DNA of 64,000 bases from Parcubacteria group bacterium GW2011_GWC1_36_108 (GCA_000991245.1 LBRD01000003.1:6734-70733); one strand, 5' to 3'; shown: positions 7,658 to 57,818, counted from the stretch's first letter. Notes: a model not told the origin generated them from the letters alone. Numbers and translations are program-made.

Positions 7658-7788
7658 AGTTCATAAAGTTTTTAAAGTTCTTAAGGTTTATAAAGTAAAA
7701 TGCAAAAAGTTGTAAGGTTTTTAAGGTTTGTAAAGTTTATAATGTAAAATACAAAAAACTCCAAAGTTTATAAAGTTCATAAGGTAAA
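7658..7788 (+). repeat. 9-bp-period array, three sub-arrays each ending in GTAAAATRCAAAAA
   Basis: gttcataaa gtttttaaa gttcttaag gtttataaa ... read directly. Immediately upstream of four-helix-bundle gene 7794. Confidence 0.75.
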
Positions 7789-7793
7789 ACAAA

Positions 7794-8144
7794 ATGGCGA
7801 AATTTGAGACATTTGAAGATATTGTTGCTTGGCAAAAATCAAGAATTCTTGTAACTGATATTTATCAAGTATTCAGAAGCAGCAAGGACTATTCTTTTCG
7901 AGATCAAATACAGAGAGCTGCAGTTTCAATTATGAATAATATCGCCGAAGGTTATGAAAGAAAAGGAAATAAGGAATTTGCAAAGTTTTTATATATAGCA
8001 AAAGGTTCTTGCGCAGAGGTTCGTTCAATGCTTTATCTCGCTCTAGATTTAAGATATATTAATAGGGAAGAATTTAATAACTTTTCTGAACAATCACTTG
8101 TAATTTCTAAGATGTTATCAAGTCTCATAAAAACATTGTGTTAG
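7794..8144 (+). CDS. four-helix-bundle protein (23S rRNA intervening-sequence protein family)
   Basis: 116 aa. Motifs QIQRAAVSIMNNIAEGYER and FLYIAKGSCAEVRSMLYLA. Confidence 0.8.
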   Translation: MAKFETFEDIVAWQKSRILVTDIYQVFRSSKDYSFRDQIQRAAVSIMNNIAEGYERKGNKEFAKFLYIAKGSCAEVRSMLYLALDLRYINREEFNNFSEQSLVISKMLSSLIKTLC

Positions 8145-8172: not shown

Positions 8173-9339
8173 ATGCGAATTTTATTCTTCAATTATGAAT
8201 TTCCACCGTTGGGTGGGGGAGCGGGAAATGCTTCTTTTTATTTGTTGCGCGAATATGCAAAAAATTCTGATTTGGAAGTTGATTTTGTGACAGCTTCAGT
8301 TGATGGGCAATATCATCTTTTGAAAATGGGAGAGAATGTTAATATTCATCGACTCCCGATTGGAAAAAATGCTGAAAATATTCATTATCAAACAAAGAAA
8401 GACTTGATTTTATACACTTGGAAAGCATATTGGTTTTCCAGAAAGTTGGCCAAGAAAAATCAATATGACTTGTCGCACTCATTTTTTTCTGTGCCTTGCG
8501 GAGCAATTTCATTGTTACTAAAATGGGAGTTCAAATTGCCATATATTGTTTCACTTCGTGGAAGCGACGTTCCTGGTTATAGTGAGCGATTTGTTGGGCT
8601 TTACAGGTGGATCACGCCGACTATTTTGAAAATTTGGAAAAATGCTTTTTTTGTGGTTGCCAACAGCCAAGGACTAAAAGAATTGGCAGTTAAATCTGAG
8701 CCGAAAAAAGAAATAGGTGTTATTTATAACGGCGTTGACGTCAAAGAATTTGTTGCTGATCCAAGCAAGCGCAATCCTGAGCACTTTACTATTATTTGTG
8801 TTTCACGTGTTACGCCGAGAAAAGGTATTCGTTTTTTGATTCAAGCTTTCAAGATGCTCTCTGGACGTTATGATAATGTGCAGCTTTTGATTGTGGGAGA
8901 TGGTAATGAAAAAAAATCACTTGAAGATTTGGTGCGAAGTCTTGAAATTGAAAACAGAGTTGAATTTGCAGGAGCGATTGATCACACAAATGTATTGGCA
9001 TATTATCAGCGAGCTGATGTTTTTGTGCTTCCGTCGCTTAATGAAGGAATGAGTAATGTGATGCTTGAAGCGTTGGCGGTTGGATTGCCAGTGGTTGCAA
9101 CTGATACGGGCGGTACCAAGGAACTTTTGACTGATAATGTGAATGGTTTGGTTGTTAAAATGAAAGATTCAAATGATTTGGCTGAAAAAATTGAAAAATT
9201 AATCGTGAATGATGAACTCAGAAAAACAATGAGTTTGGAGAGTCGCAAATTGGCGGAAAGGATGAGTTGGGAAAAAGTGGCAGGAGAATATGTTGAATTG
9301 TATAAAAAAATAGATAATTCGAGGAAGATGAAGGGGTAA
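8173..9339 (+). CDS. GT4 glycosyltransferase
   Basis: FPPLGGGAGN N-terminus. C-terminal LPSLNEGMSNVMLEALAVGLPVVATDTGG (E-x7-E region). Confidence 0.85.
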   Translation: MRILFFNYEFPPLGGGAGNASFYLLREYAKNSDLEVDFVTASVDGQYHLLKMGENVNIHRLPIGKNAENIHYQTKKDLILYTWKAYWFSRKLAKKNQYDLSHSFFSVPCGAISLLLKWEFKLPYIVSLRGSDVPGYSERFVGLYRWITPTILKIWKNAFFVVANSQGLKELAVKSEPKKEIGVIYNGVDVKEFVADPSKRNPEHFTIICVSRVTPRKGIRFLIQAFKMLSGRYDNVQLLIVGDGNEKKSLEDLVRSLEIENRVEFAGAIDHTNVLAYYQRADVFVLPSLNEGMSNVMLEALAVGLPVVATDTGGTKELLTDNVNGLVVKMKDSNDLAEKIEKLIVNDELRKTMSLESRKLAERMSWEKVAGEYVELYKKIDNSRKMKG

Positions 9340-9480: not shown

Positions 9481-10413
9481 ATGAAAATATTGAATAATAA
9501 AATTGTGAAGTTTGTTGTAAAGTTAATAATCAGTCTTGCTTTTGTGGCTTGGTTGATTTTTGAGATTGATTGGTTGCAGGTTTGGGGGTATTTGAAAGAG
9601 CTTAGTCTTGTTTCGATTGTTTTATATGTGGCAGTGCTTCTTTTGGGGATGATGATTTCAGCTTGGAAGTGGAAAATGCTTTTGGCGCATAAAAATATTT
9701 CCATTAGTTTGAAGAAAAGTTTTCAACTTTATTTGACAGGCGCCTTCATTAATAATTTTATGCCCTCGACAATTGGAGGGGATACATATCGCGCATATCA
9801 AATTGGCAAAGACTCCAAAAGGTTTTCCGCGGTTAGTTCAAGTGTGGTTTTTGATCGTGTGACAGGACTTTTTGCAGTAATTCTTTTGACTGGGCTGATT
9901 GCGATTTTCCGGTGGAATGAAATTTCCAAATTTGCAGAATTGAAACTTGCTGTTATTGCTGTGCTTATCATTATGCACGCGATTATTTTTTTTGGTATTT
10001 TGACGAAGTTTTCTTTTTGGAAAAAAATTGCCGGCAAATTTCCAAAAATTGTGCAGGATTTTGCAATTGAGCTTGCACATTACAAAGAAGATGGGGCATA
10101 TTTGAGAGCAATTGGAATTTCAATTTTGTTCAGTGTTGTCGGTCTTGGATTGGTCAATTGGATTCTTTTTTCCGGACTTGGAATAACGGTGGGAATTTGG
10201 CAATATCTTTCAGTGATTTTTCTTATAAGCATAATTTCTGCTTTGCCAATCAGTATAAATAACATAGGGCTCAAAGAATGGGCCTATGTGACGTTCTTTG
10301 GTTTCTTTGGTGTTCCGGCCAGTGCTGTGGTTGCTGTGGCACTGATAAGCCGCGTGCTGCAAATGATTGTAAGTTTCACAGCACTGTCGATGTATTTGAG
10401 GAGCAAAAAATAG
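9481..10413 (+). CDS. flippase-like membrane protein (lysyl-PG synthase TM-region / UPF0104 family)
   Basis: Polytopic. Motif NNFMPSTIGGDTYRAYQIG. Start moved past the repeat-derived N-terminus of the track ORF. Confidence 0.65.
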   Translation: MKILNNKIVKFVVKLIISLAFVAWLIFEIDWLQVWGYLKELSLVSIVLYVAVLLLGMMISAWKWKMLLAHKNISISLKKSFQLYLTGAFINNFMPSTIGGDTYRAYQIGKDSKRFSAVSSSVVFDRVTGLFAVILLTGLIAIFRWNEISKFAELKLAVIAVLIIMHAIIFFGILTKFSFWKKIAGKFPKIVQDFAIELAHYKEDGAYLRAIGISILFSVVGLGLVNWILFSGLGITVGIWQYLSVIFLISIISALPISINNIGLKEWAYVTFFGFFGVPASAVVAVALISRVLQMIVSFTALSMYLRSKK

Positions 10414-41444: not shown

Positions 41445-42263
41445 TTAAAATGGGCTTTTGATGTTTCTAAGCATTGGATTAGTTACTTTCGTGTATATCT
41501 GTGTTGTTCTTATATTAGCATGTCCAAGCAATTCTTGTACATATCGCACATCAACCCCATTTTCAAGCAGATGAGTGGCAAAAGAATGTCTAAGTGAGTG
41601 AAAAGTGGCTTCTTTTTGAACCTCAGCTTTTTGCAGAGCATTTTCAAAAACTTTTTGTGCGCTACGCTCATCTAATTTTCCTCCGCGATTACTGGCAAAA
41701 ACATAATCATTTAAATCTCTAAGCGCAATCATATTAAGCAATTGTGGTTTCAATTTTTCTGAAATTACACTTATTCTATCCTTGTTTCCTTTAGCTCCTT
41801 TTATATGAATTGTTAATTCGTCTAAATTGATGTCTTTAATCTTTAAATTTATTGCTTCACTGACGCGAAAACCTGCGCCATAGGAAAGGGAAATGAGCAG
41901 CTTATGTTTCGGATTGCTTATGGAATCAATCATTCTTCCAATCTCATCCCTAGAAAGTACTACGGGCAATTTGCTGGCAGTTTTGGCAAATTTGATATCA
42001 ATTTCAATATTATTTTTAAAAACTTCTCTATAAAAGTATTTAATAGCTTGAAGATGCACATTCATCGTCTGTGAGGATTGTCCACGAGCTTGTTTTTCTA
42101 ATAAATATTTCTTAATTACTTCAATTTCCGGTTCGCGCTTAATAATTTTAATGTATTTGAAATATTCATTCAGACAAGACAAATAACTCTCAATTGTCCT
42201 TGGACTGTAATTTCGAAGTTTCAGTTCGTTTTTGATTTTTTCCAGCAACTCTTGGAGATTCAT
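41445..42263 (-). CDS. tyrosine site-specific recombinase (Xer/IntI-like, 272 aa)
   Basis: YSPRTIESY N-terminal SAM-like domain; KLPVVLSRDE; catalytic R (GFRVSE), K (KGNKDR), HSLRHSFATHL and LGHANIRTTQIYTKV (Tyr). There is no long insertion between the K and HxxR regions. Confidence 0.85.
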   Translation of the reverse strand: MNLQELLEKIKNELKLRNYSPRTIESYLSCLNEYFKYIKIIKREPEIEVIKKYLLEKQARGQSSQTMNVHLQAIKYFYREVFKNNIEIDIKFAKTASKLPVVLSRDEIGRMIDSISNPKHKLLISLSYGAGFRVSEAINLKIKDINLDELTIHIKGAKGNKDRISVISEKLKPQLLNMIALRDLNDYVFASNRGGKLDERSAQKVFENALQKAEVQKEATFHSLRHSFATHLLENGVDVRYVQELLGHANIRTTQIYTKVTNPMLRNIKSPF

Positions 42264-42321
42264 AAAAAATATGCTATATTTTATTCATAAATCAGTGATG
42301 GTTGTATTATACTAAAAGTTC

Positions 42322-42384
42322 GCATAACCTGCAACTTTCAACATACTATCAAACACTAAGTTCGTATATAAAGGAGTTATGTGC
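42322..42384 (+). other. attI-like region: GCATAAC (42322-42328) ... GTTATGTGC (42376-42384)
   Basis: Inverted AAC/GTT boxes 113 bp or less from the recombinase start. 42376 is where similarity to the right end of cassette 1 begins. Confidence 0.4.
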
Positions 42385-42489
42385 AATAGCCAGAAATACC
42401 CCATTATCTTTTAGAATTTTTTTTGGCGAAATGCAGGGTCGAATAACTCAAGGTAAAATTAATATTAATTAAATTAAACAACAAACATT

Positions 42490-43110
42490 ATGAAAGAAAT
42501 GTATCAACCATCGCAAGCTGAAATAAAAAAAGCAGAAGATGTCATGACTGAAGAACAAAAACTTGAGAGCATGACGAGAGAAAATGCTGTTCACGCAGGG
42601 GAAGCATCTTTCAGTGATTATGATGAAACAAAAAAAATTAACCCAGAAAAAACCCATAAAATTGAGATAGAACTGCAAGCCACAATTTATAAGGAATTCA
42701 ATGATCGAGTTAAAGAATTAGTTAAATCATATACAGAAAGCCTATCTGCCCTAAAAAGAGAAGCTAACTATGAAGACGACGAGCAGCTTGATGAGATAGA
42801 TAAAAAAATAAATGAATTAACAAAAAAATTATTTGAAGACTTTGGAGAACAGTATATGCGCTTAAGCAAGGTTGTAATAGACACCACAATAACAATATCA
42901 GATTTTGTAATTCATAAAAAAGACATGTTATTACAGCAAGAAGAAGATCAACAAAAAAGACAGGAGTTAGAAGCCAGCATACTTAAAAGCGAAAATGCAA
43001 AAATACAAAGAGCGGAAGCTGTCATAGCAAATCTTGAAAAATATATAAACGATGTTAAAAACAATTTTGAAAAAGGTGCTGAAGAATTAATGAAAGAAAT
43101 AAAGAAATAA
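42490..43110 (+). CDS. cassette 1 ORF: acidic coiled-coil protein, unknown function
   Basis: 206 aa, E/K-rich. Bracketed by inverted repeats 42376-42430 and 43117-43175. Confidence 0.6.
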   Translation: MKEMYQPSQAEIKKAEDVMTEEQKLESMTRENAVHAGEASFSDYDETKKINPEKTHKIEIELQATIYKEFNDRVKELVKSYTESLSALKREANYEDDEQLDEIDKKINELTKKLFEDFGEQYMRLSKVVIDTTITISDFVIHKKDMLLQQEEDQQKRQELEASILKSENAKIQRAEAVIANLEKYINDVKNNFEKGAEELMKEIKK

Positions 43111-43166
43111 GAAAAATTCGCCAAAAAAAATTAAACACAAATAAGGAATGGGTATTTCTAGCTACA

Positions 43167-43364
43167 GCACATAACAGCCCATATCTGGCTACAGGAAATT
43201 GACGCTAGTAAAAACAATATTGAGTGTCAATTTCCCTCCGCCCAAATTTTCATCCCTTGGTTTGATGAAGGTTTAGGCGGAGTGCATTAAAAAAAATATC
43301 AGCCTGTAATTAAAGTTTATCCTGCTAAACGGGATGAAAACTTCAGATATGGGCGACGTTGTGC
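43167..43364 (+). other. attC-like folded site 1
   Basis: GCACATAAC, then CCCATATCTG pairing with CAGATATGGG; hairpin GGAAATTGAC/GTCAATTTCC; CCCAAATT; GTTGTGC. Confidence 0.55.
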
Positions 43365-43527
43365 GAAATAAATTTTTTATCTATACTAATATTAGCGTTT
43401 AGTGATGCTAGTAAGGACAGAAAATTTGATTTTTTAATTATTTTAAGAGGGGTAATATGTGTTTTTCTGCTCTTTGGGGAGCAGAAAAAATTAATTCATT
43501 TGTAATTTATTTTTAAGCAATAAAACT

Positions 43528-44430
43528 ATGAGCATGGAACAACCAAAATTTAATCCACACAATCCTGAATATAAAAAAGTTGAGGATTTACCAAAAGAAG
43601 AACAAGTAAATTATTCTGACGTTGAAGGTGGTTTTGTTCAAAAAGAAGCAGCTGAGTTTTATAAAATAGCGCAGGACATTGAAAGAATTACAGAGCGCGA
43701 AAGTGGCTCAATGAGTGCTGACAAATTCATGATGCTTCTCGCGCAAGATGAGGACACGAAAAGAGAATGGGATGCGCTTACTGGAAAACAAAAGCTCAAT
43801 GTTCTCATGGGAAATCCTAAAAAAGAGGACATGGATTTATCGACTTGGAACACGAATAGGTCTGCGATAGAGAAAACTCTTGAAGAACATCCTGAACTTA
43901 GAGATAACAAGAAGCTTATGCTTAAATTGATTATTTCAGGTACCAGTCAGGCACCAGGGCTTGCTTCTGAAAAAGTGCGTAATGATAAGGGTTACGCTTT
44001 GGAGGCGGTAAAACGAAACGGAATGGCTCTCGGGTATCTTCCAGAGGAGATGCAAGACGATGAAGATGTTGTTATGGCAGCAGTTACTACGCGTGGATTA
44101 GCTCTTAGAGAGGCTTCTCCACGATTGCAGAACAATAGAGAAATTGTTGCTGCAGCAATCACCTCAGAGGATGGAGACTTTGGAGACATAATATATGCCT
44201 CCTCAGATGAGGTAATTGAAAGTTTATTGGATGAAAATAACCCAGCCAATAAGGATATTCTTTTAAAAGCGATGAATAACAAGCATGTCAATGATAATTA
44301 TAAAAGAATTGCCAGCTATAATCCAAATCATCCAGACTACCAGGGTGGGCAGTACGATGAAGTTTTCAAGAGATATGAGCATCTGCACATGCGTGAGAAA
44401 ATAGAGAAAATATTGGGAGAGAATTTATAA
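43528..44430 (+). CDS. cassette 2 ORF: DUF4116-type repeat protein
   Basis: Repeats of the form AVKRNGMALGYLPEEMQDDEDVVMAAVTTRGLALREASPRLQNNREIVAAAI. No SD. Confidence 0.6.
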   Translation: MSMEQPKFNPHNPEYKKVEDLPKEEQVNYSDVEGGFVQKEAAEFYKIAQDIERITERESGSMSADKFMMLLAQDEDTKREWDALTGKQKLNVLMGNPKKEDMDLSTWNTNRSAIEKTLEEHPELRDNKKLMLKLIISGTSQAPGLASEKVRNDKGYALEAVKRNGMALGYLPEEMQDDEDVVMAAVTTRGLALREASPRLQNNREIVAAAITSEDGDFGDIIYASSDEVIESLLDENNPANKDILLKAMNNKHVNDNYKRIASYNPNHPDYQGGQYDEVFKRYEHLHMREKIEKILGENL

Positions 44431-44455
44431 ATATCCAAAAAAATACCAATAAGGA

Positions 44456-44504
44456 GTCTTGAAAAAAGGAATTCACCCCTTACCCCTCTTCCTTTTTTCA
44501 AGAC
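44456..44504 (+). other. 15-bp perfect hairpin with conserved C-rich loop ATTCACCCCTTACCCCTCT
   Basis: GTCTTGAAAAAAGGA / TCCTTTTTTCAAGAC. The loop is complementary to AAGAGGGGTAA at 43445-43455 and 44782-44792. Confidence 0.7.
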
Positions 44505-44573
44505 AAAAATCAAATTTTCTTAGACGCAACACAACGTTTAGTTTAATAAAAAACGAGATAAAAAATTTACATC

Positions 44574-44700
44574 GCACAACAACTCATATCTGGCTCAAGA
44601 AATTGACACTTTAATGTTTCAGATGAAAGTCAATTTCTTTCGACCCAAATTTTTGTGCAATTACATTGCGCAAAAACTTCAGATATGAGTAACGTTAGCT
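44574..44700 (+). other. attC-like folded site 2
   Basis: GCACAAC, then ACTCATATCTG pairing with CAGATATGAGT; GAAATTGAC/GTCAATTTC; CCCAAATT; GTTAGCT. Confidence 0.55.
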
Positions 44701-44853
44701 GAAATATTTTTTTGTCTTTAGTAGTGATTTTTAGATTTGTGATTTAAATAGGGACAGAAAATTTGATTTTTAATTTATTTAAAGAGGGGTAATGGGATAT
44801 TTTTTTGCTCCTGGAATCGCAAAAAAAAGATTTATTTTATTTTTAAAAACAGT

Positions 44854-46431
44854 ATGGAAAAATATTCATTAGAAAATGCCCAGAGCGAAGCTACTGTTAT
44901 TAGAAATGATGCACAAGAGGCAAAACAAAAAAGAGTGCTAGAGGGCGAAAAAAGCGGTGAGCCAAATAGAGATGATTATGACAAAGCCGACAAAGCGATT
45001 GATAGCATTGGCATAAGTAATAGAAAAGAATTTGAGCAAAAACAAGCTGAGATACAAAATAAATATTCAACCGTATTGGAGGGGTCAAAAAATAGCGGTA
45101 ATCAAGAATCTGTAAAATTGCTTCAAGATAACATGAGTCAAGAACTATCTTTTATTGATAGCCAATCAAAGAAATTTAATAGTTTGGAATTTAAAAAGGG
45201 AGAGAAGGCGACGCGTGAATATATTAAAAAAAATAATCTTGATAAATTAGTAGAAGAATTCGGAATTGAGCCAATGAAAGAGGGTTGTCGTCTTTCATTG
45301 GTCATTCCAGCATGCAACGAGGGGCGTGATATTCAAAAAACATTACAATCCTTAGCAGAGCAGAAAGATGAAAATGGTGAAGGTATTAATCCTGATGAAT
45401 TTGAGGTTTTGATTACAGTCAATCAAAAAGAGCAATCAAGCGAGGAAATAAAAAAATCAAATCAACAAACACTTGAAGCAATAGAAGAATTCAAAAGGAA
45501 TAATCCATCTTTAAATATCCATGCTATTTTAAAAGAATTTACGGGCGAGCAAGGTGGTGTTGGTTGGGCAAGAAAATTAGGAAGTGATTTGGTACTTGCA
45601 AGAAGTTTTAGCAGAAATCAAGAATCTGAACGAGAACCGATGTATATTGCAGGAACTGACGCTGATACAATTGTTGGTGAGCAATATGTATCAGAAATTA
45701 TCAAGGCAGCAAATAAGTATGGCGATGCCGCCTATGGCGGTGGTGTTATTTTTGATGAGAATTGGGAAAAAGCATTGGGAAAAAATGCGTCCGACAAGCT
45801 CAGGGTATTCATGGAAGATATGCGTGGATTTCTATTAAAGGCATTAAATGGCGGTTTGCAAGGTGCAAACTTTGCCATACGCGAAGATATCTATGCTCGC
45901 ATGGAAGGAAGCTCAACAAAAGTACATAGCGAAGATGCGGAAAATGATGAACGATTACGAAGTTTGAAAAAAAATGTAACATTTTTAAATTCTGACCATA
46001 TCACTAGCTCTCGTAGGATGATTGGAGAATTCGAAAACTATATTGCTGGAATGCGAGGGCAAAAAATAGACTGGGAAACACGAAACAAGACTTATGGAAA
46101 GTCTGTCCCTACGGGAGAAAAAATTGACTTTACTGAATCCGAGCTTGATGAGGTAATTGCTTACCACAAATTACATAGATCAGATCTAATTATAGACAGT
46201 ATAACTTCGGAAAACGTAAATAATCCAGAGATGGTGCAATTGATTGGAGAAAAATATCATTCTGATTTTAAAGATTTAAAAACTGAAGAATTTAAGACAC
46301 TATTGAATGATAAAAATTTTAGAAAAAAATTACAAATTGAGATAGCATACAATATGTCTAAATTATTTGCATCGAAAATTTCATATACAGAAAAAGATAA
46401 ATTCATCATCGGAATTCCAGAAAAACAATAA
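44854..46431 (+). CDS. cassette 3 ORF: protein with central GT-A (GT2-like) glycosyltransferase fold
   Basis: LSLVIPACNEGRDIQKTLQSL and GTDADTIV (DxD-like). Coiled-coil N-terminus. No SD. Confidence 0.55.
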   Translation: MEKYSLENAQSEATVIRNDAQEAKQKRVLEGEKSGEPNRDDYDKADKAIDSIGISNRKEFEQKQAEIQNKYSTVLEGSKNSGNQESVKLLQDNMSQELSFIDSQSKKFNSLEFKKGEKATREYIKKNNLDKLVEEFGIEPMKEGCRLSLVIPACNEGRDIQKTLQSLAEQKDENGEGINPDEFEVLITVNQKEQSSEEIKKSNQQTLEAIEEFKRNNPSLNIHAILKEFTGEQGGVGWARKLGSDLVLARSFSRNQESEREPMYIAGTDADTIVGEQYVSEIIKAANKYGDAAYGGGVIFDENWEKALGKNASDKLRVFMEDMRGFLLKALNGGLQGANFAIREDIYARMEGSSTKVHSEDAENDERLRSLKKNVTFLNSDHITSSRRMIGEFENYIAGMRGQKIDWETRNKTYGKSVPTGEKIDFTESELDEVIAYHKLHRSDLIIDSITSENVNNPEMVQLIGEKYHSDFKDLKTEEFKTLLNDKNFRKKLQIEIAYNMSKLFASKISYTEKDKFIIGIPEKQ

Positions 46432-46434
46432 GGA

Positions 46435-46484
46435 GTTTTGTTTCAAAAAAATTCACCCCTACCCCTCTTTTTTTGAAACAAAAC
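46435..46484 (+). other. 17-bp perfect hairpin with conserved loop TTCACCCCTACCCCTC
   Basis: GTTTTGTTTCAAAAAAA / TTTTTTTGAAACAAAAC. The stem differs from 44456-44504 but the loop is conserved. Confidence 0.7.
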
Positions 46485-46553
46485 GAAAAATCAAATTTTC
46501 TTAGTAATAAAACAAAGTTTGTATTAATAAAATAGAAGACAAAAAAATACATC

Positions 46554-46743
46554 AGCTAACACGGCATATCTGGTTCAGAAATTTTTCACTTTTATACTTT
46601 TTAACGCCAAGGTTTGAAAAATTTCCTCTCCCAAATTGCGCTGTGATATGGCAAAGTTTAGTGATATAATTAAGGCAGGCAGAAAGTTGAAGTTTTAGCC
46701 AATGAATATGGGCGCAACTTCAGATGATGCCGATACGTTGTCG
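46554..46743 (+). other. attC-like folded site 3
   Basis: AGCTAAC, then GGCATATCTG pairing with CAGATGATGCC (one bulge); GAAATTTTTCA/TGAAAAATTTC; CCCAAATT; GTTGTCG. Confidence 0.5.
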
Positions 46744-46803
46744 GAAATATCAAAAAACAAATTCATTAATATTTTTTTCAAGCCCTTTTGAAATTCAGGT
46801 AAA

Positions 46804-46830
46804 GAAAAAACCGCACAGTATTCTGTGCGG
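46804..46830 (-). terminator. rho-independent terminator for the minus-strand small ORF
   Basis: Minus strand reads CCGCACAG-aata-CTGTGCGG followed by TTTTTT. Confidence 0.7.
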
Positions 46831-46848
46831 TCGTAATTACATTTGTCA

Positions 46849-47019
46849 TTATATCGCCCTCGACATTTCCTGAATTGAAGCCTCGCTTAGTTTGTTGTGT
46901 TCTTTTTCGTCACAAGAAGCTATCAAGTACGTGCACAAGATTATAGTACCACCAAATCCATTGGGAAAATGTTGGGCATGTCTACAGTCATCATCTTCGT
47001 ATGGACAACGCTTTTCCAT
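46849..47019 (-). CDS. cassette 4 ORF: 56-aa Cys/His-rich protein (below track threshold)
   Basis: AAGGAGGTGATTAAT-ATG strong SD. MEKRCPYEDDDCRHAQHFPNGFGGTIILCTYLIASCDEKEHNKLSEASIQEMSRAI. Has its own terminator. Confidence 0.5.
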   Translation of the reverse strand: MEKRCPYEDDDCRHAQHFPNGFGGTIILCTYLIASCDEKEHNKLSEASIQEMSRAI

Positions 47020-47092
47020 ATTAATCACCTCCTTGTTTAATGTGCTAGTATACTATTATTAGATAAATTATCAATATTGTCAAGCGGGGAAA

Positions 47093-47124
47093 AACTTCTC
47101 ATACTTAGATATGTTGTGCGAAAT
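47093..47124 (+). other. degenerate terminal site (AACTTC...TAGATAT-GTTGTGCGAAAT)
   Basis: Shares GTTGTGCGAAAT with 43358-43369 and retains a decayed AACTTCAGATATG box. Confidence 0.4.
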
Positions 47125-55705: not shown

Positions 55706-56926
55706 CTATTGGAAGTCTGCGAGGACGTTGCCGGAAATTTTTCGCAGGCGTTTTACAACTTCTTTTATTTTTTCAATGACAGTGTCTAGTTCTTTTTTGG
55801 TGGTATGTTTTCCTAAGGTTAGTCTGAGACTGCCGTGAGCTTGCTCGTGCTTAAGTCCCAAAGAAAGCAAAACGTGCGATGGATCAAGTGCTCCAGATGA
55901 GCAAGCAGAGCCCGTAGAAGCCGCGATGCCGTCTAAATCAAGTGAGAGTATTAATCCCTCTCCTTCAACATCATCAAAACGAAAATTGGCATTATTTGGA
56001 GATCTTTTTTCTAATGAGCCATTAAGATATGATTTAGGGATTTCTTTTAGTACACGTTTGATAAGATAATCTCGCAGCTTGGTTATTTCAATAATATTTT
56101 TTTGCGCGGCTGGAGTTTTGATCATATTAATTGCTTCTCCAAGACCAACTATTGCTGGAACGTTGTGCGTTCCTGCGCGCAGCCTGAATTCTTGATCGCC
56201 GCCATCTTGCACACGTTTAATCAAAGTGCCTTTTCTAACATACAAAAGTCCAATCCCCTTTGGACCATATATTTTGTGCGCCGACATTGAAAGCAAATCA
56301 ACTCCAAGTTCATTCACATCACAATCAAAATAGTTTATAGCTTGAGTGGCGTCAGTATGAAATGAGATGCGCGGCAGCTTGTTTTCTGCTCGCTCAACAT
56401 TTATTTTTTTTAGCAACTTCCCTATTTCAGCAATCGGCTGAACTGTGCCAATTTCATTATTAACGTACATCACGGAAATTAAAATCGTGTTAGGTTTGAT
56501 GGCTGCTTTGATATCTTTAACTGCGATTAAGCCTTCTTTATTGGGCGCAACGAATGTCACATCAGCAAGTCCATCTTTTTCGGCAAATTTGCAAGCATCT
56601 AAAACGCAATGATGTTCAAATTTGCTGGTAATGATATGTGGTTTTTCTCCTGCTTTTCTGGCAATGGAATAATATGAACGCAAACCTCCCTTTACAACAA
56701 GATTATTACTCTCCGTGGCTCCAGAGGTAAAAATTATTTCAGAAGCATTAGCGCGGAAAAAAAGTGCAGCTTTAGCTCTGGCATCATCAACTGCTTCTAA
56801 GGCTTCTTGACCAAAACTATGCACACTCATTGCATTACCAAAATTCTGCGAAAAATATGGCAACATTTTTTCAAACACTTTAGCATCAACTGGAGTTGTG
56901 GCTGCGTAATCTAAATATATTTTCAT
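55706..56926 (-). CDS. cysteine desulfurase (NifS/IscS class)
   Basis: YLDYAATTP, SAHKIYGPKGIG (PLP Lys), SSGSACSS (active Cys). Confidence 0.9.
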   Translation of the reverse strand: MKIYLDYAATTPVDAKVFEKMLPYFSQNFGNAMSVHSFGQEALEAVDDARAKAALFFRANASEIIFTSGATESNNLVVKGGLRSYYSIARKAGEKPHIITSKFEHHCVLDACKFAEKDGLADVTFVAPNKEGLIAVKDIKAAIKPNTILISVMYVNNEIGTVQPIAEIGKLLKKINVERAENKLPRISFHTDATQAINYFDCDVNELGVDLLSMSAHKIYGPKGIGLLYVRKGTLIKRVQDGGDQEFRLRAGTHNVPAIVGLGEAINMIKTPAAQKNIIEITKLRDYLIKRVLKEIPKSYLNGSLEKRSPNNANFRFDDVEGEGLILSLDLDGIAASTGSACSSGALDPSHVLLSLGLKHEQAHGSLRLTLGKHTTKKELDTVIEKIKEVVKRLRKISGNVLADFQ

Positions 56927-57538: not shown

Positions 57539-57745
57539 ATGGAAAAAATTTTATTGTGTCCAGATTGTCTGGACAATGATGAAAGAAAAATCATAGGGTG
57601 TGAGGATAGTGGAAGAAAAAAAGAGTGTCTTTGGTGTAGCGCTAAAGACAAGGCAAATTGTCCCCAGCACAAGACACCCCTTATTTTCTTTGCTAATCCA
57701 GGTTTGCGATGTGATCCTTGTGATGAAATAAGGAATATTTGGTAA
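57539..57745 (+). CDS. Cys-rich small protein (zinc-ribbon-like)
   Basis: AGGAGGAG SD. CPDC...C...CLWC...C...CDPC. Confidence 0.55.
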   Translation: MEKILLCPDCLDNDERKIIGCEDSGRKKECLWCSAKDKANCPQHKTPLIFFANPGLRCDPCDEIRNIW

Positions 57746-57775
57746 AAAGGCTGTGCAGCGACACAGCCTTTTTTT
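57744..57775 (+). terminator. rho-independent terminator
   Basis: GGCTGTG-cagcga-CACAGCC followed by TTTTTTT. Confidence 0.75.
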
Positions 57776-57795
57776 CTTGCTCAAAAACTCTTATT

Positions 57796-57804
57796 TGTTA
57801 TAAT
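57796..57804 (+). promoter_or_regulatory. extended -10 element TGTTATAAT
   Basis: About 58 nt upstream of 57862. Confidence 0.4.
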
Positions 57805-57818
57805 AAATTAAGTTATCA

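Follow-up and report, generated by a model that had tools for sequence, protein, structure and literature searches.

The 64,000-nucleotide window analysed here, one strand of Parcubacteria group bacterium GW2011_GWC1_36_108 (GCA_000991245.1, LBRD01000003.1:6734-70733; positions are counted from its first letter), encodes a 272-aa Xer-like tyrosine recombinase of the 'Cand' type (41445..42263, minus strand) and, divergent from this gene, an array of three cassettes on the plus strand, each ending in an imperfect palindrome that runs from an AAC box to a GTT box. Based on comparison with related genomes, we regard the three palindromes, with good confidence, as attC-like structure-specific recombination sites of an integron-like cassette array on the chromosome of a member of Candidatus Moranbacteria (Patescibacteria, or Candidate Phyla Radiation, CPR). 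The system is widespread in the CPR and apparently of an undescribed type, as the searchable literature on integron and Xer systems in Patescibacteria/CPR yielded no description of it, and IntegronFinder 2.0 reports no integrons in these phyla.

The three sites lie on the plus strand at 43164..43369 (site 1; AAC 43173-75, GTT 43358-60), 44569..44705 (site 2; AAC 44578-80, GTT 44694-96), and 46549..46748 (site 3; AAC 46558-60, GTT 46737-39), and each encloses three helices. The closing helix P1 is formed by 43178-88/43343-53 in site 1, 44582-93/44679-90 in site 2, and 46563-73/46720-31 in site 3, where a G is bulged from the 3' strand (GGCATATCTGG / TCAGAT-G-ATGCC). As described in the initial annotation, at the motif positions given there, the outer three base pairs of P1 covary (CCC/GGG at 43178-80/43351-53, ACT/AGT at 44582-84/44688-90, and GGC/GCC at 46563-65/46729-31), and the spacer between the AAC and GTT boxes and this helix is asymmetric, its 5' side having 1-2 nt and its 3' side 3-5 nt. 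P1 further extends through GG, which pairs with the TC of ACTTC (G-C plus G.T). The second hairpin, P2, was likewise recovered with the arms reported (43194-203/43226-35, 44599-607/44629-37, and 46578-88/46615-25), both strands being altered in site 3, and the unpaired CCCAAATT is indeed found in every site, beginning at 43241, 44644, and 46630 (43241-48, 44644-51, and 46630-37). The hairpins that follow had been called variable; they are present, but they lie inside a common closing helix, P3 (43247-56/43331-40 with extra hairpins inside, 44650-61/44665-76, and 46636-41/46712-17 with a large insert inside), whose arms covary among the window sites (TTTTCATCCC/GGGATGAAAA, TTTTTGTGCAAT/ATTGCGCAAAAA, and TTGCGC/GCGCAA). 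The pair CATATCTG/CAGATATG is constant within this genome, as had been noted, but varies elsewhere with compensatory changes. Within the 64-kb window, AACTTCAGAT has exactly three copies and CATATCTG has four, three of them within the sites. The predicted single-stranded DNA (ssDNA) folds are more stable than those of shuffled sequences for site 1 (z = -7.4) and site 2 (z = -4.8), while the fold of site 3, with its long insert, is not significant against shuffles (z = -0.8).

Relatives were collected by a scan with one genome per species, which gave 73 loci (labelled L0xx), 49 of which are from Patescibacteria with recombinases 55-82% identical to that of the window. A covariance model was built from a MAFFT alignment of 14 mid-sized sites folded by RNAalifold, to which the window contributed site 2 only. 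On this plain alignment, RNAalifold returned the same three helices without prior input, with double-sided changes in 21 of the 28 pairs. The model scored 97.8 bits for site 1, 138.8 bits for site 2, and 98.2 bits for site 3 (E about 1e-22 for sites 1 and 3, which are outside the seed), and it detected 69 homologous sites in about 30 Patescibacteria (CPR) loci, with site lengths of 81-210 nt. Over these 69 sites, 92.5% of pairing cells can pair, compared to 65% when shuffled and 39-59% after shifting the partners by 1-3 columns; double-change cells number 419, compared to 116 in shuffles, 24 of the 28 modelled pairs changed on both sides, and the covariation score is 0.442 against 0.12. The 69-site alignment was fitted to the model and could be biased by it, a bias against which the independent 14-site result guards. 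The spacer lengths counted from the model-fitted alignment were not used, as P1 is shortened in the model. Compensatory changes are also visible by eye in dozens of sites upstream of related recombinase genes, for example CACATGCGG/CGCATGTG and GAATATGAGG/CTCATATTC. Homologues of the sites are thus abundant and keep the helices, and covariation across many genomes strongly supports the initial proposal of selection on a folded nucleic acid, either an ssDNA recombination substrate or an RNA.

All strong model matches are on the strand opposite to the recombinase, 0.2-4.8 kb upstream of its gene, and are confined to CPR loci L002-L042; the 24 loci with distant recombinases (L050-L073) gave no strong matches. 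In about 30 genomes from several CPR classes, the sites take up this position and orientation with respect to the recombinase. No further copies of the site were found in the rest of the 64-kb window or, in the loci retrieved, on the other side of the recombinase gene. This distribution bears on the possibility that the sites are selfish palindromic repeats, similar to miniature inverted-repeat transposable elements or repetitive extragenic palindromes, which owe their spread to a transposase from another locus and are close to the recombinase by chance. Imperfect palindromes with conserved ends are in keeping with such repeats, as are the roughly 110-nt terminal inverted repeats of cassettes 2 and 3, but the absence of copies in the remainder of the window and on the far side of the recombinase, the recurrent placement across CPR classes, and the tyrosine-recombinase (dif/lox-like) form of the arms make this explanation extremely unlikely. 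Two weak model matches in the window (56540-56653 and 57718-57808) were dismissed as noise, one being in a coding region and the other at a terminator.

Some sites have further features of their own. In many of them, the P2 and P3 loops (columns 40-60 and 105-125 of site alignment A1) contain TATAAT followed by AAGGA(G), resembling a -10 box and a Shine-Dalgarno sequence (e.g., L010:9007-9166 and L019:1588-1746), and AATAAGGAG is also found 3' of stop codons in the window cassettes. The site at L017:8966-9106 appears to be a hybrid, in which the left P1 strand ACTAATATCTGG is mismatched with the right strand CAGATGATGCC, a right-strand type that is frequent at the last site of arrays; this suggests an origin by within-site recombination between two different sites.

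Each site is preceded by an open reading frame (ORF), and together they form a cassette. Cassette 1 (42377..43358) carries an ORF at 42490-43110 (206 aa, no family match), and its ends at 42376-42401 and 43150-43175 are complementary. Cassette 2 (43359..44694; ORF 43528-44430, 300 aa, DUF4116) has complementary ends at 43358-43382 and 44556-44580, and cassette 3 (44695..46737; ORF 44854-46431, 525 aa, family 2 glycosyltransferase) at 44694-44718 and 46536-46560, in both cases with the exception of a 2-nt mismatch. The sequence GTTGTGCG after site 1 complements CGCACAAC before site 2, and GTTAGCTG after site 2 complements CAGCTAAC before site 3. A pattern search suggested a probable fourth, decayed cassette on the plus strand (46738..47124), with the half-site ACTTCTCATACTTAGATATGTTGTGCGAAAT at 47094-47124, which consists of an arm, a spacer, GTT, and an arm, has no convincing 5' half and no CCCAAAT, and was missed by the covariance model. 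On the minus strand, the same stretch contains a small ORF (46849-47028), which is preceded by a strong Shine-Dalgarno sequence and has a terminator-like hairpin of its own (46809-46832, also minus strand). A Bro-N gene and small ORFs further on may be older cassettes.

Comparison between genomes places the cassette boundary at GTT. Homologous cores from different genomes show full identity between AAC and GTT and no relation directly after GTT, whereas their homology goes on upstream into the cassette; the core therefore belongs to the preceding ORF. A core nearly identical to that of site 1 is found at L041:815-1021 with a different right flank, and the cores homologous to site 3 (L010:6674-6865 and L035:8886-9078) also stop at GTT. 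The comparative data thereby establish cassette turnover between genomes in addition to the boundaries. One main ORF reads toward the site in 15 of the 18 delimited cassettes, and all sites are on one strand. The cassette contents are diverse, including NIF3, a Na/Ca exchanger, glycosyltransferases, and many putative secreted proteins, and family scans of the cassettes found no replication, phage, or mobility genes. The first cassette at L080:3-1835, beside an 89%-identical recombinase, encodes a 611-aa protein that by eye resembles a DNA methyltransferase (..LIWGDNKLILSSLKNG..), and genes for restriction-modification or defence may thus be among the cassette contents.

Around their unrelated ORFs, cassettes 2 and 3 have a 'chassis' in common, with leaders at 43415-43456 and 44752-44793 and trailers at 44448-44523 and 46427-46504. 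The 5' leader contains GGACAGAAAATTTGATTTTT..AAGAGGGGTAAT, and the 3' trailer consists of AATAAGGAGTYTTG, a hairpin with the loop ATTCACCCCTNACCCCTCTT, and AAAAATCAAATTTTCTTAG; leader and trailer are mutually complementary and extend the inverted repeat at the cassette ends to about 110 nt. The leader, the trailer, or both are found in many loci (e.g., L003, L004, L008, L010, L024, L025, L028, L035, and L080). In addition, GC-rich mini-cassettes of about 95-200 nt without an ORF occur amid the AT-rich arrays, often right after attI (the putative primary site beside the recombinase gene, described below; L016, L022, L031, L037, and L038) or at array ends, with examples at L007:2011-2105, L011:9105-9199, L013:1334-1428, and L035:8706-8800. 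They have the form GTT-NNNN-AAAATG-[GC loop]-CATTTT-NNNN-AAC followed by a core with GAAACCCTTCGGGATTTC, one right half can pair with two alternative left boxes, and Rfam matches none of them. One array (L024) contains three copies, 95-100% identical, of an ORF-less 191-nt cassette (7721-7911, 8504-8694, and 9700-9890).

Complementarity of the two ends of a cassette is also seen across the related loci. Among 19 cassettes with both ends defined, it extends over 25-36 nt, the sequences differ by cassette, and a constant 2-nt mismatch occurs at positions 10-11 (GAAAT opposite ACATC). The GTT-NNNN of one site perfectly complements the NNNN-AAC of the next site in 17 of 35 consecutive pairs, compared to a mean of 2.5 and a maximum of 8 in 2000 shuffles of the partners, while the two boxes of one and the same site match in just 2 of 64 cases. 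In the array, 0.1-1.9 kb separates the partners of this stem (the R stem), and only a circle brings them side by side: the mobile unit starts with the TT of one GTT and finishes with the G of the following one, and its ends therefore pair when it is circular. Complementary cassette ends of this kind are the signature of integron cassettes.

A candidate attI core is located at 42358..42387 on the plus strand, 113 nt from the start codon of the recombinase gene. It consists of a left arm AAGTTCGTATAT (42358-69), the spacer AAAGGA (42370-75), and the crossover GTT (42376-78), followed by ATGTGCAAT, which is part of cassette 1. Written as arm-spacer-arm (AAGTTCGTATAT-AAAGGA-GTTATGTGCAAT), it fits two arms of about 11 bp around a 6-8-bp centre, and Xer/dif sites are defined by two roughly 11-bp arms with a 6-8-bp central region (PMC5357621). 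The sequence GTTATGTGC (42376-84) is the exact reverse complement of GCACATAAC, which precedes site 1; no third exact copy occurs in the window. Of the 44 CPR loci that include upstream sequence, most (about 40) have the consensus A(A/C)(G/C)TTCG(C/T)ATAT-AAACGA-GTT about 110 nt from the recombinase start. Ten locus pairs are 81-97% identical over 400 nt to the left of the attI GTT and 50-57% identical to its right, with the divergence setting in exactly after this GTT. The association of the arrays with a recombinase and an attI is also established by the comparative sequences. The arm ACTTCGTATA, found in many attI and in some site arms, matches the inner 10 nt of the loxP arm ATAACTTCGTATA in full, and the right arm TTATGTGAAAT resembles the XerD arm of Escherichia coli dif, TTATGTTAAAT.

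Two other elements lie between attI and the recombinase gene. An arm-like box, AAGTTCGCATAAC (42316..42328, plus strand), has the form A-N-TTC-NNNN-AAC of the left box of the sites, is conserved in position and sequence across loci, and is a possible accessory recombinase-binding site. A TGnTATAAT-like box, TGCTATATT (42272..42280, plus strand), is located beside the recombinase start codon, is directed into the cassettes, and is kept at the same place in most CPR loci. It could be a Pc-type promoter, the counterpart of the integron Pc; it was listed with its TG extension by a scan of the array for sigma-70 promoters and terminators that overall did no better than on shuffled sequences. The exact 21-nt attI core AAGTTCGTATATAAAGGAGTT was also found in three metagenome contigs (L075:5426-5446, L076:67-87, and L077:1303-1323), two of which have the same sequence. 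These cores are followed by GTT-NNNN-..AT, and in L075 a PvuRts1I-like nuclease gene is located about 0.8 kb further; the three contigs have no recombinase nearby and no model matches, are uninformative on this species, and possibly hold related sites of other lineages.

The recombinase contains the Pfam domains PF00589 (E = 1.9e-41) and PF13495, and the HxLRHSFATHLL and TTQIYT motifs are present. The best NCBIfam score, 224.5 bits, is to the XerA-type model NF040815 ("tyrosine recombinase/integron integrase"), while TIGR02249 (integron integrase) matches in two stretches with 212.5 bits, under the cutoff of 265. XerA matches equally well and is among the best matches in the structural database (E = 5e-43). 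In the alignment with VchIntIA (PDB 2a3v), residues 184-195 of the recombinase (12 residues) replace chain residues 186-240; the alignment splits at this stretch of about 55 residues, and the IntI-specific domain is therefore absent. The recombinase shares 100% identity with a protein of Candidatus Moranbacteria GW2011_GWC2_37_73 and has more than 7000 homologues, and nearly all of the 120 listed are 272-280 aa long and annotated as XerD or "tyrosine recombinase/integron integrase". A scan of viral contigs with the recombinase gave a single distant match (27% identity). The genes following that of the recombinase are def and fmt.

Between the two kinds of folded nucleic acid, an ssDNA recombination substrate is favoured over an RNA on comparative grounds, because the arrays adjoin a recombinase and attI, the boxes follow cassette logic, homology breaks at GTT, and wobble pairs are rare. 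The sites could instead be structured RNAs transcribed with the cassettes, such as 3' untranslated region stabilisers, terminators, or small RNAs, as they lie downstream of ORFs on the sense strand, form a multi-helix fold with conserved unpaired motifs, and carry on the coding strand, in 50 of 63 cases, an invariant G.T (G.U) at the P1 base. However, Rfam (15) matches none in the window at the gathering threshold and only one tRNA in 10 related loci, and a tRNA/tmRNA search found none. Among about 1465 cells, variable pairs include 30 G.T and 34 A.C, so G.T is no commoner than A.C; the rarity of wobble therefore fits a DNA palindrome constrained on both strands rather than an RNA. Apart from the invariant G.T at the P1 base, there was no wobble-pair asymmetry to indicate the folding strand. 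Moreover, the partners of the R stem would be 0.1-1.9 kb apart on a transcript and the stem could not form within the transcript of one site, and the sites occur solely beside a recombinase and attI with homology that breaks exactly at GTT. We thus consider an RNA as the main explanation very unlikely, while the sites may have a secondary role at the RNA level.

With the sites read as recombination substrates, the proposed reaction begins from their likeness to attI. The 3' strand of P1 and its flank, ACTTC-NN-ATAT, have the same form as the left arm of attI, and GTT-NNNN-GAAAT has that of the right arm; because its arms share the attI form, the 3' half of each site can be described as a dif/lox-type arm-spacer-arm, of which the 5' half is an imperfect complement. 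Judging from the complementary ends, the 3' box ACATC-NNNN-AAC of an excised cassette would pair with its own 5' start, GTT-N'N'N'N'-GAAAT and 13-24 further nt, at a predicted circular-cassette junction such as CAGATATGAGTAACGTT + GTGCGAAATAAATTTTTTATC, where the site core is followed by the start of the same cassette. The resulting R stem would be 25-36 bp long, always with the 2-nt mismatch; beyond it would follow an unpaired spacer of 1-2/3-5 nt and P1 of 11-12 bp, and the structure would be closed by the P2/P3 three-way junction with the invariant CCCAAAT. Predicted folds of a cassette end joined to its own start agree with this arrangement, having a 25-bp R stem with a 2-nt internal loop, the asymmetric spacer, P1, and a branched junction. 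Such a hairpin would mimic a double-stranded arm-spacer-arm site similar to dif or attI. In analogy to the reactions of IntI/attC and XerC/CTX-phi attP, exchange by one pair of recombinase molecules may then involve only one strand and take place at the R-arm boundary formed by AAC/GTT, after which replication would resolve the junction. Recombination of attC with attC would lead to cassette excision, and that of attI with attC to insertion.

The crossover is placed at the R-arm boundary because in attI, as in each of the sites, the left arm invariably retains the spacer. The cuts made by tyrosine recombinases have a 5' stagger, as is established for Cre, XerCD, and lambda Int, and by this rule the bottom strand would be the one cleaved at the R-arm boundary. 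The bottom strand is also the more stable in predicted folds of 20 of 21 circularised junctions (by a mean of 3.6 kcal/mol, p = 7e-5), so the exchanged strand is probably the bottom one; a more stable bottom strand has likewise been reported for canonical attC (PMC5027507). That the single-stranded fold is the reactive form, that this is the strand used, and that this recombinase is the catalyst is what we infer from these features.

On the other hand, the hairpin could be a by-product or have some other use, if two-strand Xer recombination at the double-stranded, dif-like part (ACTTC..ATAT, spacer, GTT-NNNN-GAAAT) excises circles of double-stranded DNA. The 3' half of a site together with the start of the next cassette does form a complete attI-like arm-spacer-arm, and the half-site at 47094-47124 has no 5' partner. 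Nevertheless, two-strand exchange by tyrosine recombinases needs matching central regions, and the spacers here vary in sequence and length (AAAGGA, GGCGAC, AGTAAC, and GCCGATAC), which is unfavourable; the covariation of the left box, the R stem of 25-36 nt, and the P1 5' strand with their partners over 0.1-1.9 kb would also be left unexplained. We consider recombination of this kind unlikely.

The array can be compared with sedentary chromosomal integrons such as the VCR array of Vibrio cholerae. In both cases, a tyrosine recombinase gene is divergent from the array with an adjoining attI; the cassettes are one-directional, have a single ORF, and end in an imperfect palindrome with AAC...GTT; the crossover is at G|TT and the cassette start complements its own inverse core (definitions in PMC5027507); and the sites, which are alike within one array, consist of an R box, an unpaired spacer, an L box, and a terminal structure. 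The CPR sites differ from attC in the length of the R stem (25-36 bp with a conserved 2-nt mismatch compared to about 7 bp), in having a conserved three-way junction with the invariant CCCAAAT instead of a variable terminal structure, in their overall length (81-210 nt compared to 57-141 bp), and in their CPR host. In canonical attC sites, the extrahelical bases and the cleaved AAC are on opposite arms, the central spacer is unpaired, and the terminal structure is not conserved (PMC5027507), whereas the spacer here is asymmetric, and its excess and the bulged G are on the 3' arm of the top strand, which is the arm of the bottom-strand AAC.

Gene modules bounded by Xer-type sites are also known from the pdif modules of Acinetobacter, which are thought to be mobilized by Xer recombination (PMC7399989). 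The CPR sites are all direct, form hairpins, and are chromosomal and beside the recombinase gene. In contrast, pdif sites are simple 28-bp stretches of double-stranded DNA, placed in alternating inverted orientation.

A further explanation keeps much of the same mechanism and differs in the purpose of the platform. The recombinase could be the single housekeeping Xer of the CPR, with 'attI' being the chromosomal dif beside its gene, and the cassettes could be elements similar to integrative mobile elements exploiting Xer (IMEX) that pile up at dif. The recombinase has the length and domain content of Xer, is as similar to XerA as to IntI, and belongs to a very conserved family that is ubiquitous in the CPR and annotated as XerD. 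The 'Cand' subgroup of Smyshlyaev et al. comprises simple recombinases near Xer, found in candidate phyla only and placed among putative dimer-resolution enzymes (10.1101/542381); we found no paper tying this subgroup to cassettes or hairpin sites. The attI has the form of dif (arm, 6-bp spacer, arm) beside the gene, as in the single-recombinase modules XerS/difSL, XerH/difH, and archaeal XerA/dif (PMC5357621), although those systems resolve dimers and have no cassette arrays or hairpin sites, unlike the arrays with folded sites here. Furthermore, CTX-phi integrates at dif as a folded single strand: its attP(+), as with IMEX, is used by a Xer-type recombinase without accessory domains, and the folded strand mimics a dif-like duplex with a partly unpaired centre (PMC5357621). 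Elements can stack at the site in both cases, and exchange of one strand pair followed by replication is known for CTX-phi and only inferred here.

The cassettes themselves do not resemble known IMEX. They are 0.1-1.9 kb long, are single-gene units, and lack replication, phage, or mobility genes, and the arrays are integron-like, with one ORF and one site per unit in a single direction. Every integrated cassette retains a complete foldable site, so that it could still be excised, whereas the fold of CTX-phi is lost once it integrates. To the left and right of the locus, GC skew is of one sign, both in the window and in 11 of the 12 loci for which 10 kb could be compared on either side (the remaining one, L042, is flat and uninformative), and because the sign is kept, the locus is not at a skew switch or terminus, in contrast to IMEX at dif. 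This argument is tempered by archaeal XerA, the dif sites of which are not always opposite the origin (PMC5357621). Taken with these points, a housekeeping Xer with IMEX-like elements is possible but doubtful.

Several observations weigh against an integron-like array. The recombinase has no IntI-specific domain, which canonical integron recombination needs (PMC9668308); this additional domain, around patch III, defines integron integrases (Messier and Roy 2001, cited in PMC9668308), and its absence sets the CPR system apart from integrons. The family of the recombinase is presumed to be the chromosome-dimer resolvase of the CPR (10.1101/542381). The extra unpaired bases are on the arm opposite to that expected from canonical attC, and the choice of strand cannot therefore be read by analogy with attC. 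About half of the consecutive site pairs have no 4-nt match, which is likely due to undetected GC-rich mini-cassettes or to decayed sites such as 47094-47124. Finally, all 24 public contigs with an identical recombinase carry the same three cassettes, and no ongoing rearrangement was seen in this lineage among these contigs. Three contigs with an 89%-identical recombinase have one first cassette in common. Cassette variation was seen only between more distant relatives, and from these alignments we infer activity on evolutionary time scales only.

Integrons are defined and searched for by the IntI-specific domain and the canonical attC model, and a Xer-like system with a different hairpin would escape such searches. 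We lean slightly toward the view that the CPR arrays represent a separate, possibly ancestral integron lineage, in which a plain Xer-family recombinase captures cassettes at a dif-like attI via a new site architecture across much of the Patescibacteria. Such a lineage would stand, as a living intermediate, between Xer/dif (or CTX-type IMEX) and classical integrons, and it would be a main route of gene gain in these reduced genomes. If this is true, structure-specific cassette capture would be possible without the IntI domain, and the system would be a concrete candidate for the origin of integrons from Xer/dif. The folded sites would form a new family of DNA recombination sites with conserved junction nucleotides, available for mechanistic and engineering work, and the function of the very conserved 'Cand' recombinase of the CPR becomes testable. 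For the CPR, a large, little-understood part of bacterial diversity with tiny genomes, the arrays would provide a platform of gene exchange, the cassettes of which carry surface or secreted proteins, glycosyltransferases, and, in one case judged by eye only, an apparent DNA methyltransferase.

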